Shown here one piece after another: positions 19,043 to 36,836 of a DNA stretch of 64,000 nt (the stretch's first letter is position 1; each line of letters starts with the position of its first letter). The notes beneath the pieces were generated by a model. The model worked only from the letters and a program-made list of their open reading frames with translations, ran no database searches and was not told where the DNA came from. Position numbers and translations under genes: made by a program. Origin of the DNA: Escherichia coli. GTDB lineage: Bacteria > Pseudomonadota > Gammaproteobacteria > Enterobacterales > Enterobacteriaceae. The stretch lies in assembly GCF_003334315.1 (NCBI RefSeq), contig NZ_QOWR01000016.1; one strand, written 5' to 3'.

Positions 19043-19118
19043 AATCTCGCGCTAACAACCTGGAATCGAGCCGTCATACTACGGCGCAACGCCCTATAAA
19101 GTAAACGATGACCCTTCG

Positions 19119-19146
19119 GGAACTTCAGGGTAAAATGACTATCAAA
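19119..19146 (+). promoter_or_regulatory. Candidate sigma-E (sigma-24) promoter upstream of greA
   Basis: GGAACTT -16 nt- TCAAA matches the sigma-E -35/-10 consensus; greA is a reported sigma-E regulon member. Confidence 0.6.
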
Positions 19147-19161
19147 ATGTGAATTGTAGCT

Positions 19162-19197
19162 GACCTGGGACTTGTACCCGGGTCGGTATTTTTTTGC
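19162..19197 (+). terminator. graL: Intrinsic terminator/attenuator in greA leader (end of GraL leader RNA)
   Basis: GC-rich hairpin GACCTGGGACTTGTACCCGGGTC followed by a run of 8 T, about 100 nt upstream of the greA start. Confidence 0.6.
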
Positions 19198-25846: not shown

Positions 25847-25933
25847 GCCGAGGTGGTGGAATTGGTAGACACGCTACCTTGAGGTGGTAGTGCCCAATAG
25901 GGCTTACGGGTTCAAGTCCCGTCCTCGGTACCA
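25847..25933 (+). tRNA. leuU: tRNA-Leu
   Basis: GCCGAGGTGGTGGAATTGGTAGACACGCTACCTTGAGGTGGTAGTGCCCAATAGGGCTTACGGGTTCAAGTCCCGTCCTCGGTACCA: long-variable-arm class II tRNA with CCA end, immediately 3' of secG as for E. coli leuU. Confidence 0.9.
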
Positions 25934-29715: not shown

Positions 29716-29792
<77 letters not shown>

Positions 29793-29913
29793 CTTTCCCT
29801 TAGAGTCCTTTTTCAAATATACTGTGAAGACTTCGGCCTTCGTAGTGGGATTTGAAAAAATCCTTCTGGAAAGTGCTCCAGACCGCAGTTGCGGTTATAG
29901 GGTTCAGTTATAT

Positions 29914-29940
29914 AAAGCCCCGATTTATCGGGGTTTTTTG
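29914..29940 (+). terminator. Intrinsic terminator/attenuator between metY and rimP
   Basis: AAAGCCCCGATTTATCGGGGTTTTTTG hairpin plus T-tract. Confidence 0.7.
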
Positions 29941-29998
29941 TTATCTGACTACAGAATAACTGGGCTTTAGGCCCTTTTTTTATGTCTTGGGGGTGGGC

Positions 29999-30478: not shown

Positions 30479-31966
<1,488 letters not shown>

Positions 31967-31990
31967 TAAACTGTAGCAGGAAGGAACAGC

Positions 31991-34663
31991 ATGACAGATG
32001 TAACGATTAAAACGCTGGCCGCAGAGCGACAGACCTCCGTGGAACGCCTGGTACAGCAATTTGCTGATGCAGGTATCCGGAAGTCTGCTGACGACTCTGT
32101 GTCTGCACAAGAGAAACAGACTTTGATTGACCACCTGAATCAGAAAAATTCAGGCCCGGACAAATTGACGCTGCAACGTAAAACACGCAGCACCCTTAAC
32201 ATTCCTGGTACCGGTGGAAAAAGCAAATCGGTACAAATCGAAGTCCGCAAGAAACGCACCTTTGTGAAACGCGATCCGCAAGAGGCTGAACGCCTTGCAG
32301 CGGAAGAGCAAGCGCAGCGTGAAGCGGAAGAGCAAGCCCGTCGTGAGGCAGAAGAATCGGCTAAACGCGAGGCGCAACAAAAAGCTGAACGTGAGGCCGC
32401 AGAACAAGCTAAGCGTGAAGCTGCTGAACAAGCGAAACGTGAAGCTGCGGAAAAAGACAAAGTGAGCAATCAACAAGACGATATGACTAAAAACGCCCAG
32501 GCTGAAAAAGCCCGCCGTGAGCAGGAAGCTGCAGAGCTCAAGCGTAAAGCTGAAGAAGAAGCGCGTCGTAAACTCGAAGAAGAAGCACGTCGCGTTGCTG
32601 AAGAAGCACGTCGTATGGCGGAAGAAAACAAATGGACTGATAACGCGGAACCGACTGAAGATTCCAGCGATTATCACGTCACTACTTCTCAACATGCTCG
32701 CCAGGCAGAAGACGAAAGCGATCGTGAAGTCGAAGGCGGCCGTGGCCGTGGTCGTAACGCGAAAGCAGCGCGTCCGAAGAAAGGCAACAAACACGCTGAA
32801 TCAAAAGCTGATCGTGAAGAAGCACGCGCAGCAGTACGTGGCGGTAAAGGCGGAAAACGTAAAGGTTCTTCGCTGCAGCAAGGCTTCCAGAAGCCTGCTC
32901 AGGCCGTTAACCGTGACGTTGTGATCGGCGAAACTATCACCGTTGGCGAACTGGCGAACAAGATGGCGGTTAAAGGCTCTCAGGTCATCAAAGCGATGAT
33001 GAAACTGGGCGCAATGGCAACCATCAACCAGGTTATCGATCAGGAAACCGCACAGCTGGTTGCTGAAGAGATGGGCCATAAAGTTATCCTGCGTCGTGAA
33101 AACGAGCTGGAAGAGGCGGTAATGAGCGACCGTGACACGGGTGCTGCGGCTGAACCGCGCGCGCCGGTTGTGACCATCATGGGTCACGTTGACCACGGTA
33201 AAACCTCTCTGCTGGACTACATTCGTTCAACGAAAGTGGCCTCTGGCGAAGCGGGCGGCATTACCCAGCACATTGGTGCATACCACGTTGAAACTGAAAA
33301 CGGCATGATCACCTTCCTGGACACCCCGGGGCACGCCGCGTTTACTTCAATGCGTGCTCGTGGTGCGCAGGCAACGGACATCGTAGTCCTGGTTGTTGCT
33401 GCCGACGACGGTGTGATGCCGCAGACCATCGAAGCAATCCAGCACGCGAAAGCGGCGCAGGTACCGGTGGTGGTTGCAGTGAACAAGATCGATAAACCAG
33501 AAGCTGATCCGGATCGCGTTAAGAACGAACTCTCCCAGTACGGCATCCTGCCGGAAGAGTGGGGCGGTGAAAGCCAGTTCGTACACGTATCTGCGAAAGC
33601 GGGTACCGGTATCGATGAACTGCTGGACGCTATCCTGCTGCAGGCGGAAGTTCTGGAGCTGAAAGCGGTACGTAAAGGTATGGCGAGCGGTGCGGTTATC
33701 GAATCCTTCCTCGATAAAGGTCGTGGTCCGGTTGCTACCGTTCTGGTACGTGAAGGTACTCTGCACAAGGGCGATATCGTTCTGTGTGGCTTCGAATACG
33801 GTCGTGTTCGTGCGATGCGTAACGAACTGGGTCAGGAAGTGCTGGAAGCGGGTCCGTCCATTCCGGTGGAAATCCTCGGCCTGTCCGGCGTACCGGCTGC
33901 GGGTGATGAAGTTACCGTTGTACGTGACGAGAAGAAAGCGCGTGAAGTTGCACTCTATCGTCAGGGTAAATTCCGCGAAGTTAAACTGGCGCGTCAGCAG
34001 AAATCTAAACTCGAGAACATGTTCGCCAACATGACCGAAGGCGAAGTTCACGAAGTGAATATCGTCCTGAAGGCAGACGTACAGGGTTCTGTCGAAGCGA
34101 TCTCCGACTCCTTGCTGAAACTGTCTACTGACGAAGTTAAAGTGAAGATCATCGGTTCTGGCGTAGGTGGTATCACCGAAACCGACGCCACCCTGGCTGC
34201 GGCGTCCAACGCCATCCTGGTTGGCTTTAACGTACGTGCTGATGCCTCTGCACGTAAAGTGATTGAAGCGGAAAGCCTGGATCTGCGTTACTACTCCGTC
34301 ATCTATAACCTGATTGACGAAGTGAAAGCGGCGATGAGCGGTATGCTGTCTCCGGAACTGAAACAGCAGATTATCGGTCTGGCGGAAGTTCGTGACGTGT
34401 TCAAATCGCCGAAATTTGGTGCCATCGCAGGCTGTATGGTTACCGAAGGTGTGGTTAAACGTCACAACCCGATCCGCGTTCTGCGTGACAACGTGGTTAT
34501 CTACGAAGGCGAGCTGGAGTCCCTGCGCCGCTTCAAAGATGACGTTAACGAAGTCCGTAACGGTATGGAATGTGGTATCGGCGTTAAGAACTACAACGAC
34601 GTCCGCACTGGCGATGTGATCGAAGTATTCGAAATCATCGAGATCCAACGTACCATTGCTTAA
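31991..34663 (+). CDS. infB: Translation initiation factor IF-2
   Basis: 890-aa [32 protein letters not shown] with repetitive charged N-terminal region and GTPase G-domain ([12 protein letters not shown]); matches IF2. Confidence 0.97.
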
Positions 34664-34681
34664 GGTTTTTAGGGTTCCATG

Positions 34682-34757
34682 CGGGATAAGGCGTTTACGC
34701 TGCATCCGGCATGGATTGCCTGATGTGACGCTGGCGCGTCTTATCAGGTCAACGTGA
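34682..34757. repeat. REP element between infB and rbfA
   Basis: CGGGATAAGGCGTTTACGCTGCATCCGGCA ... GCCTGATGTGACGCTGGCGCGTCTTATCAGGTC. Confidence 0.75.
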
Positions 34758-34784
34758 ACAGCCCTTCCACCTGAAATTAATTTT

Positions 34785-34810
34785 AAAAAGGGGCTAACAG
34801 CCCCTTTTTT
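34785..34810 (+). terminator. Terminator-like hairpin immediately upstream of rbfA RBS
   Basis: AAAAAGGGGCTAACAGCCCCTTTTTT then GTCAGGAGAA and the rbfA ATG; possible attenuator within the nusA-infB-rbfA operon. Confidence 0.55.
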
Positions 34811-34826
34811 GTCAGGAGAATTTATT

Positions 34827-35228
34827 ATGGCGAAAGAATTTGGTCGCCCGCAGCGCGTAGCGCAGGAAATGCAAAAAGAGATCGCTCTCATCCTGCAGCG
34901 TGAAATTAAAGATCCTCGCCTGGGCATGATGACCACCGTTTCCGGTGTCGAAATGTCTCGCGACCTGGCGTATGCCAAAGTATATGTGACGTTCCTCAAC
35001 GACAAAGATGAAGACGCGGTTAAAGCGGGCATCAAAGCGTTGCAAGAAGCTTCTGGTTTCATCCGCAGCCTGCTGGGGAAAGCGATGCGCCTGCGTATCG
35101 TGCCGGAACTGACCTTCTTCTACGACAACTCTCTGGTTGAAGGGATGCGCATGTCAAACCTGGTGACCAGCGTGGTCAAACATGACGAAGAACGTCGTGT
35201 TAACCCGGACGACAGCAAGGAGGACTAA
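34827..35228 (+). CDS. rbfA: Ribosome-binding factor A
   Basis: Track ORF trimmed to [24 protein letters not shown] giving 133 aa; matches RbfA. Confidence 0.95.
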
Positions 35229-36172
35229 TGAGTCGTCCTCGTCGTCGCGGTCGCGACATTAACGGCGTTTTGTTGCTGGATAAACCTCAGGGTATGTCCA
35301 GCAACGATGCGCTGCAAAAAGTGAAACGTATATATAACGCCAACCGTGCCGGGCATACCGGTGCGCTGGACCCGCTGGCGACCGGCATGTTGCCGATTTG
35401 CCTCGGGGAAGCGACGAAGTTTTCCCAGTATCTGCTGGACTCCGACAAACGCTATCGGGTCATTGCGCGTCTTGGACAGCGTACCGATACTTCTGATGCC
35501 GACGGACAGATCGTTGAAGAACGTCCGGTAACCTTTAGCGCAGAGCAGCTGGCAGCGGCACTGGATACTTTCCGTGGCGATATCGAACAGATCCCTTCGA
35601 TGTATTCAGCACTGAAATATCAGGGCAAAAAACTGTACGAATATGCGCGTCAGGGCATTGAAGTTCCGCGTGAAGCGCGTCCGATTACCGTTTATGAATT
35701 GCTGTTTATTCGCCATGAAGGCAATGAGCTGGAGCTGGAAATTCACTGCTCAAAAGGCACTTATATCCGCACCATCATTGATGACCTGGGTGAAAAACTC
35801 GGCTGTGGCGCGCATGTTATTTACCTGCGCCGTCTGGCGGTAAGTAAATATCCGGTTGAACGGATGGTGACCCTGGAGCACCTGCGTGAACTTGTTGAGC
35901 AAGCTGAACAGCAGGATATTCCAGCCGCGGAGTTACTTGATCCATTACTGATGCCAATGGACAGTCCAGCTTCGGACTATCCGGTGGTGAATCTTCCGTT
36001 AACGTCTTCTGTTTACTTCAAAAATGGTAACCCGGTTCGTACATCTGGTGCGCCACTGGAAGGACTGGTTCGCGTCACGGAAGGTGAGAACGGCAAATTT
36101 ATCGGTATGGGCGAAATTGACGATGAAGGCCGCGTTGCGCCTCGTCGCCTGGTGGTTGAATACCCGGCGTAA
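35228..36172 (+). CDS. truB: tRNA pseudouridine-55 synthase
   Basis: 314-aa ORF with catalytic [14 protein letters not shown]; matches TruB; start overlaps rbfA stop. Confidence 0.96.
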
Positions 36173-36224
36173 TGTTAACCGTCTTGCGATAACAGGTCGC
36201 TACGAGTAGAATACTGCCGCTTAA

Positions 36225-36590
<366 letters not shown>

Positions 36591-36606: not shown

Positions 36607-36635
36607 AAAAGGGGGCCTGAGTGGCCCCTTTTTTC
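36607..36635 (+). terminator. Intrinsic terminator after rpsO
   Basis: AAAAGGGGGCCTGAGTGGCCCCTTTTTTC. Confidence 0.8.
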
Positions 36636-36836
36636 AAGCTGACGGCAGCAATTCACTGGAAACTAATGTATTGTTGCTATGAATGATCTTCCGTTGCAGA
36701 GGTTCGCGCGGCTAATGAGAGGCTTTACCCACATAGAGCTGGGTTAGGGTTGTCATTAGTCGCGAGGATGCGCAGAAGATCGGGTATTAACACCAGTGCC
36801 GTAAGGTACTGTCTAAGAAAGAGAAAGGATATTACA
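36636..36836 (+). promoter_or_regulatory. pnp 5' leader (autoregulatory region with RNase III-processed stem-loop; sRNA SraG reported in this intergenic region)
   Basis: About 200-nt untranslated region between rpsO terminator and the UUG start of pnp; regulatory role is from published E. coli work, not seen directly. Confidence 0.5.

Follow-up and report, generated by a model that had tools for sequence, protein, structure and literature searches.

Charged tandem repeats in the N-terminal region of initiation factor IF2 from Escherichia coli and their natural whole-unit length variants

Charged single alpha-helix (SAH) domains of the ER/K type, such as those of myosin VI, myosin X and caldesmon, are long isolated helices with a high content of Glu and of Arg or Lys and almost no hydrophobic residues. 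Here we compare with these domains, and with other described systems, a repetitive segment in the N-terminal region of translation initiation factor IF2 of Escherichia coli, which is encoded by infB within a 64,000-nucleotide (nt) stretch of contig NZ_QOWR01000016.1 (assembly GCF_003334315.1), hereafter the window. The segment is the same feature as that described for domains I and II of IF2 in Enterobacteriaceae, where a helix spans residues 98-157, domain II begins at residue 158, and tandem translation from GUG158 and AUG165 yields the beta and beta' isoforms in addition to alpha (PMC4611024, PMC10486304, PMC13245402). A passage of the review PMC4611024 describes residues 98-157, on the basis of nuclear magnetic resonance (NMR), as a mobile helix with a repetitive hydrophilic sequence and the N-terminal domain as tumbling independently. 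Domain II is also where E. coli becomes resistant to lamotrigine: in one study, all 20 of 20 spontaneous suppressors lay in this domain, where they fell into one class of short duplication and three of in-frame deletion (Stokes et al. 2014, PMC4371806), and in a second study between a few and 17 residues were deleted, with residues 176-192 lost in the largest case (Singh et al. 2023, PMC10486304). The repetitive helix, the three isoforms and domain II as the target of lamotrigine are therefore already known to IF2 specialists, and nothing that we found is different in kind. What we add is modest: a catalogue of natural whole-unit insertion and deletion (indel) alleles with their frequency and their link to microhomology, and a quantified synonymous constraint at the internal start.

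The best explanation of this DNA as a whole, and one that we regard as highly probable, is that it codes for a pair of alpha-helical segments in enterobacterial IF2, both built from repeats and highly charged (Glu/Arg/Lys/Ala/Gln). The original prediction, made from the letters of the window, was that the N-terminal region of infB carries a repetitive charged segment with imperfect tandem nucleotide repeats, and this was confirmed. The two strings quoted in its support occur once each, at 32321 and 32432. Over 32290-32640, identity at a lag of 24 nt was 0.559, compared to a maximum of 0.396 +/- 0.016 in 2000 codon shuffles that kept composition (z = 10.5, reached in 0/2000 shuffles). Tandem Repeats Finder reported arrays of period 24 at 32299-32355, 32342-32456 and 32543-32606 and an array of period 21 at 32579-32626, and a separate repeat search found eight copies in a 24-nt register starting from 32276. 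The signal is concentrated in the first of two blocks (Table 1). Block 1 alone had a lag-24 identity of 0.673 (z = 10.7 relative to codon shuffles), whereas block 2 alone (32504-32635) was weak, with a best lag of 21, a z of 2.9 and 15/2000 shuffles as high, which is about the level of a G-domain control.

The repeats are imperfect. Units of 21-24 nt are 60-72% identical to a reference copy, and the longest exact repeat is 15 nt. At positions where two units have the same residue, the same codon was used in 43.5% of cases, compared to the 50.9% expected from the codon usage of infB. Codon identity between units is thus no higher than codon usage predicts, and the similarity of the DNA follows from the repetition of the peptide. 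This rules out recent DNA duplication or gene conversion as the process keeping the units alike (inter-unit codon identity 0.435 vs 0.509 expected); the repeats are maintained at the level of the protein, not by recent duplication or homogenization of the DNA.

In the protein, block 1 has a period of eight residues, with an identity of 0.63 at lag 8, 0.57 at lag 16 and 0.11 at lag 7. Its octad consensus is A-[AE]-E-Q-A-[KRQ]-R-E, and AAEQAKRE is among its units. Block 2 mixes periods of seven and eight (identity 0.41 and 0.37 at lags 7 and 8, respectively). Over residues 97-215, 54% of residues are charged, 29/119 are Ala and 8/119 are hydrophobic, and pairs of opposite charge at i/i+4 number 38, compared to 16.6 +/- 3.2 in shuffled sequences. 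No Pfam or NCBIfam model covers these residues. AlphaFold2, run on the single sequence with no alignment, predicted one helix over residues 96-216 with a predicted local distance difference test score (pLDDT) of 87-96 and a predicted template modeling score (pTM) of 0.30.

The composition, the i/i+4 excess and the lack of a hydrophobic seam are shared with ER/K SAH domains, as is the long isolated helix, which is predicted here and partly verified by NMR (PMC4611024). The segment differs from these domains by its abundance of Ala and Gln, Ala recurring at every fourth position, and by its eight-residue unit. The region is mobile by NMR, and its likeness to an SAH is one of composition and prediction, not of measured monomer stability or a lever role. 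The segment thus appears to resemble an ER/K-type single helix, a class membership that our tests cover in part.

Comparison of complete E. coli genomes revealed that the number of repeat units is not fixed. Whole-unit indels in infB were found in at least 55 of the 5426 genomes searched and comprised at least 12 alleles, of -96, -48, -24, -21, +21, +24 and +48 nt (Table 1). Every event found was in frame and of whole units. The comparison of copy number between strains that the original prediction called for therefore shows that length polymorphism does exist. The genomes were searched with 94 predicted deletion and duplication junctions, and representatives were fetched and aligned. The query also held a 103-nt wild-type background (query positions 2617-2719) that 5353 records matched, and 55 records rose above this background. 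Variants topped the probe ranking, and variants detected by a single probe and lacking a background match could be hidden. Joining the probe records with the 64 records of <99% identity over 32200-32720 gives about 55-64 carriers among the 5426 genomes (1.0-1.2%).

Two other counts bear on these figures. All 98 full-length rows sampled from the ordinary search tables had wild-type length, although N68, with its 96-nt deletion, was the weakest of the block-1 hits there. In a count based on a stringent E-value, a near-full-length match to block 2 was missing in 35 genomes, and since 34 of these were known indel records and the other was a split of infB by the record origin, this unbiased count is fully explained by the alleles found. 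A near-full-length match to block 1 was missing in 23 genomes, compared to 21 records detected by the probes, at least one of which (23CRST038) passes the threshold; roughly 2-9 further block-1 records would lie beyond those in Table 1.

The indels occurred largely where the DNA offers direct repeats. Events were found on the direct repeats ranked 1 (15 nt), 2 (14 nt), 3 (11 nt), 5 (10 nt) and 8 (8 nt) of the 3930 in-frame runs. At the longest of these, in block 1, lie natural alleles of both -24 and +24, and SY033 and M15 also carry +24 at this repeat (32299). The second longest, in block 2, is the site of the -21 allele in H32 and AR_0149 and of the +21 allele in CMZE046. The crossover of the Esc allele lies inside a 17-of-18 match, on a GCC187 background. 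An identical +24 allele was present on different single-nucleotide polymorphism (SNP) backgrounds in N10 (0 SNPs) and DETEC-S565 (4 SNPs), which suggests that the same indel has recurred. The original prediction had called the region slippage-prone. Indels do indeed occur there, and that part stands, but the wording is to be tempered, since exact identity between the repeats extends to 15 nt at most and variants are rare. In-frame gain and loss of units at direct repeats, with recurrent junctions, are shared with polymorphic tandem repeats in other bacterial coding sequences.

Table 1. Features of the infB repeat region and natural length alleles, with their positions in the window.
Feature	Position	Strand	Evidence or carriers
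infB coding sequence, IF2-alpha, 890 amino acids (aa)	31991..34663	+	List of open reading frames (ORFs), Pfam, NCBIfam, infB annotation in all matching E. coli records
Repeat block 1, eight 24-nt registers, residues 96-159, end of IF2 domain I	32276..32467	+	Tandem Repeats Finder, register search, lag identity
Six good octad units of block 1, with a degenerate unit at each end	32300-32443	+	
Longest exact direct repeat of the region, 15 nt, AGCGGAAGAGCAAGC	32299-32313 and 32323-32337 (span 32299..32337)	+	Rank 1/3930 in-frame runs
Repeat block 2, 24/21-nt units, residues ~172-212, start of IF2 domain II	32504..32626	+	Tandem Repeats Finder, lag identity
Second-longest exact direct repeat, 14 nt, GAAGAAGCACGTCG	32579-32592 and 32600-32613 (span 32579..32613)	+	Rank 2/3930 in-frame runs
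Conserved internal translation-initiation region around GTG158, codons 153-160	32447..32470	+	Invariant codons, low synonymous entropy
Non-repetitive A-rich spacer between blocks 1 and 2	32450..32503	+	mRNA accessibility
GTG codon 158, start of IF2-beta (IF2-2)	32462..32464	+	In frame; 81/81 loci; PMC13245402, PMC11005335, PMC10486304
ATG codon 165, start of IF2-beta' (IF2-3)	32483..32485	+	In frame; 72/81 loci; PMC13245402
Antisense ORF of 214 aa, codon-aligned frame, not a gene	32150..32794	-	ORF list; by-product of codon usage
Block 1, -96 nt, four units			N68; flanked by 10-nt repeat AGCGTGAAGC
Block 1, -48 nt, two units			STEC2018-553
Block 1, -24 nt	32299-32322		Z1323PEC0008, ETEC4077 (aligned); N18-04097, ETEC4079 (assigned by probe pattern)
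Block 1, +24 nt	32299-32322		XJ5.2 (aligned); three others assigned by probe pattern
Block 1, +24 nt, extra AAEQAKRE			Seven records, several countries; three different DNA crossovers, same 898-aa protein
Block 1, +24 nt, AQQKAERE			NR301
Block 1, +48 nt, two units			OkiPb01695
Block 1, +24 and +24 nt, two separate units			SY033, M15
Block 2, -24 nt, one unit (residues ~194-201)			CNR20191027 and 28 Esc derivatives, one clone
Block 2, -21 nt, one unit			H32, AR_0149, AH21H025
Block 2, +21 nt, one unit			CMZE046

The natural alleles of block 2 fall close to known resistance mutations. The published deletion of residues 176-192 maps to 32516-32566, inside block 2, and the natural -24 (residues ~194-201), -21 and +21 alleles sit directly downstream of it in the same block. 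Both sets are in-frame deletions or duplications in the repeat-rich start of domain II; the comparison between them is one of position. The lamotrigine alleles arose under laboratory selection; the natural ones come from sequenced isolates with no known selection. The alleles of block 1 lie in domain I, outside the reported lamotrigine target. In the protein, block 1 (residues ~96-157) closes domain I, which is unique to the long isoform IF2-alpha, and block 2 (residues ~170-215) opens domain II.

Between genera, the length of the repeats varied little. Block 1 had the E. coli length (7 octads) in 69/80 Enterobacteriaceae loci and one extra eight-residue unit (8 octads) in the remaining 11/80, which belong to several genera including Phytobacter, Kosakonia, Mangrovibacter, Franconibacter and Siccibacter. 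In block 2 there was at most a gap of 1-2 columns at its end (reference position 214), in up to 8/82 aligned sequences. A steady supply of indels, their rarity within the species and the near-fixity of length between genera together argue for selection on the length of the helix. Two records in this comparison look mislabeled. CACSKA010000008.1, titled Chryseobacterium sp. 18061, has a typical enterobacterial infB N-terminus (84% identity), and NZ_JAALBX010000005.1, named "Citrobacter freundii M-21", has the 8-unit form otherwise found in the Kosakonia/Phytobacter group.

The known in-frame internal initiation sites that the original prediction placed in this gene are present within the same segment, and conserved. 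In a set of the 80 Enterobacteriaceae loci and the window (81 loci), GTG158 was invariant, as were GCG153 and GAA154, AGC159 was found in all 76 loci that keep Ser at codon 159, and ATG165 was kept in all but nine. Codons 151-160 had the lowest normalized synonymous entropy (0.094) among the first 380 codons. Of the ten codons of four-fold or greater degeneracy that are invariant in the 81 loci, three lie at 153-159; the others are TCG80, GTC85 (32228-32245), GCG112 (32324-32326), CTG20, GCT25, CGT290 and CTG339. All three isoforms are documented and have lately been detected by N-terminomics, so the mapping of internal starts by this method, proposed in the original prediction, is already in published work (PMC13245402, PMC11005335).

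The spacer between the blocks is the most accessible stretch of mRNA in the first 1.3 kb of infB, with an unpaired probability that averages 0.64 over 32450-32499 and peaks at 0.73 (32470); by accessibility, GTG158 ranks at the 87th percentile and ATG165 at the 98th. Duplex energies with the anti-Shine-Dalgarno (anti-SD) sequence showed no strong Shine-Dalgarno sequence in the spacer before the internal starts, the best duplexes at the two starts being -4.1 and -2.3 kcal/mol, compared to -6.5 kcal/mol at the annotated start. The shorter isoforms are translated from GUG158 and AUG165 inside this weakly folded spacer, and it may be this lack of structure, rather than a Shine-Dalgarno sequence, that permits internal initiation. 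Within the first 1.3 kb of infB, the anti-SD match with the lowest energy (-8.8 kcal/mol) precedes an in-frame ATG at codon 378 (33122-33124; GAAGAGGCGG at 33110-33124). ATG378 is invariant (81/81 genera), but GAGG is found in 9/81 genera and codon 375 is usually GAA, and we rejected it as a fourth start: it is probably a chance site.

Several other explanations of the repeats were weighed. The simplest is that the segment is a low-complexity charged region whose repeats are purely compositional, do not vary in length and have no effect at the level of the DNA. Most genomes look this way: identity over 32200-32720 is >=99% in 98.8% of them, the 98 sampled full-length rows show no length change, and the title of a 1997 paper cited in PMC12345225 calls E. 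coli IF2 extremely conserved. The periodicity nevertheless stands at z = 10.5 over a null that keeps composition, and the explanation is refuted by the whole-unit alleles unless all of these, in at least 55 genomes, are assembly artefacts; we consider it extremely unlikely. That the repeats are heptads forming a coiled coil, by which IF2 would dimerize or bundle, is suggested by the "heptad-like" label of the original prediction and by the lag-7 identity of block 2 (0.41), and we judge this very improbable. The label did not hold, since the unit of the main block is eight residues (0.63 at lag 8 vs 0.11 at lag 7), and with 8/119 hydrophobic residues there is no hydrophobic a/d seam or periodicity. 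The pattern of opposite charges at i/i+4 is typical of single helices, and the independently tumbling N-terminal domain of the NMR work, as the review passage reports it, also speaks against bundling. A third explanation is that the array is an adaptive contingency locus, a hot spot kept because frequent gain or loss of units adjusts IF2 function in settings such as cold adaptation, ribosome maturation or drug tolerance. In its favor, the same sites have mutated on different SNP backgrounds (N10 and DETEC-S565), three crossovers have led to the same 898-aa protein, and lamotrigine selects only indels of this kind (PMC4371806). Contingency loci have long perfect repeats of short units whose frequent changes switch expression, however, whereas the units here are 21-24 nt long and imperfect, the events are in frame and the variants are found in only ~1% of genomes. 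Units also differ at synonymous sites, with less codon identity than expected, contrary to what a tract kept hypermutable would show; the number of units is almost constant among Enterobacteriaceae, and no phenotype is known for any natural allele. infB also differs from the polymorphic coding repeats of bacteria in being an essential cytoplasmic housekeeping gene with little exact identity (<=15 nt) between its units, and it has no sign of diversifying selection. We therefore think a contingency locus unlikely.

An overlapping gene on the other strand would constrain the DNA of the repeats in a different way. The 214-aa antisense ORF noted in the original prediction does exist, and few SNPs are found across the region within E. 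coli; its openness is not produced by the repeats as such, as had been claimed, but by codon usage throughout the gene. In the codon-aligned antisense frame, stops arise only from sense TTA, CTA and TCA codons. The frame is open because infB has 0 TTA, 0 CTA and only 4 TCA codons, two of which (codons 54 and 271) bound the ORF. The open stretches of 54, 217, 142, 40 and 438 codons include their longest in the non-repetitive C-terminal half, where there is a longer antisense ORF of 571 aa. Among the related genera, the 214-aa ORF is intact in 24/81 and broken by 1-5 stops in 57/81. Cross-genus entropy of sense synonymous sites showed no extra regional constraint over codons 91-200 apart from the internal start, and the SNP trough (30800-33400) reaches into the 3' part of nusA, so that its extent is not that of the ORF. 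These data indicate that the antisense ORF follows from codon usage and is not a gene, and we see next to no chance that it shapes the repeats.

Returning to the two charged helical segments, we propose that they act as a tether or spacer, a single semi-rigid helix whose length is under selection, which would join the N-terminal IF2N subdomain to the ribosome-binding and GTPase parts of the factor. Indels would arise by replication slippage or by unequal recombination between the imperfect direct repeats, and purifying selection on helix length may keep the resulting alleles rare. Several points weigh against this proposal, or against parts of it. The spacer or ruler function is one that we infer, and the N-terminal region has been reported to be dispensable for basic initiation (PMC10486304, discussion). 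The NMR helix covers residues 98-157 alone, and the AlphaFold2 model, made with no alignment and with a pTM of 0.30, is of a kind, the long charged helix, that is a common default prediction. The probe set was skewed to sites with microhomology, and the enrichment of events at long repeats is in part a matter of ascertainment. There was little microhomology at the events in NR301 (4 nt) and 02B17CRGN002 (5 nt) and at the laboratory deletion of residues 176-192 (3 nt), so simple slippage does not account for all events. A single clonal series (CNR20191027 and the derivatives Esc1-29) makes up 29/55 records, and independent events are far fewer than records. The rarity of the alleles could also reflect a low mutation rate and not selection.

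The identity of the gene itself is clear. The ORF at 31991-34663 is that of the bacterial translation initiation factor IF2. It matched the NCBIfam equivalog TIGR00487 with 987.9 bits (cutoff 424.4) over residues 306-889, and its Pfam layout is IF2_N (1-50), IF2_assoc (56-94), a second IF2_N (314-364), GTP_EFTU (393-549) and IF-2 (665-779), with EF-G_D2 and GTP_EFTU_D2 domains also matched. Sequence matches in the PDB to the N-terminal part were a 49-residue IF2N fragment and full-length cryo-electron microscopy chains, of which 3jcj_f aligned end to end with the first 390 residues (1-390 to 1-390; 765 bits). The ORFs of the window have the order rimP-nusA-infB-rbfA-truB-rpsO-pnp, which includes the operon context rimP-nusA-infB-rbfA-truB, and homologous RefSeq loci show nusA, infB, rbfA and truB. 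A 521-nt stretch over the repeats was found in all 5426 complete genomes (5426/5426) and was 100% identical to infB in many.

Several features of the surrounding DNA were also noted. Each infB query had one match to a plasmid record, and a few genomes of the E. coli collection had 2-4 matching places; a second copy of infB, full or partial, is thus present in a handful of E. coli assemblies. In comparisons with three divergent strains, SNPs were few from the 3' part of nusA through the 5' half of infB (30800-33400), at 0-8 and mostly 0-5 per 200 nt, whereas the G-domain part of infB and truB (33400-36200) had up to 19 per 200 nt. In keeping with this, an identity of >=99% was found over 33200-33720 in just 37% of genomes. 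The trough could stem from recombination mosaicism or from constraint; as it takes in part of nusA, low SNP density was ruled out as a signal specific to the repeats. Rfam matches at gathering score in the window were naRNA4 at 34680-34750 (+), between infB and rbfA; SraG at 36607-36778 (-), antisense, between rpsO and pnp; the S15 leader at 36263-36377 (+); the rimP leader at 29881-29981 (+); the greA leader at 19073-19194 (+); and two tRNAs at 29716-29789 (+) and 25847-25930 (+). All are the expected content of this E. coli region.

Overall, our data show that an essential housekeeping translation factor carries a measurable natural load of unit-length variants, in about 1% of genomes and of at least 12 alleles, at sites that are largely predictable from microhomology. 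For annotators, this means that infB genes do differ in length by 21-96 nt, and that codon usage is what creates the long antisense ORFs of this region. Some of the natural variants fall in the segment where resistance to an inhibitor of ribosome biogenesis arises in the laboratory. It is doubtful, though there is some small chance of it, that the natural repeat-number alleles are functional variants and not neutral noise. If they were, wild isolates with the block-2 alleles (-8, -7 and +7 residues) would not respond to lamotrigine-type inhibitors and would have a shifted ribosome maturation in the cold, and the block-1 alleles (-32 to +16 residues) would change how far the N-terminal domain specific to IF2-alpha, a domain implicated in DNA-damage repair, can extend. 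The length variation of an essential translation factor would in that case be standing, recurrent and adaptive, with the microhomology hot spots as its source. In either case, the natural alleles are ready material for asking what the length of the helix does.

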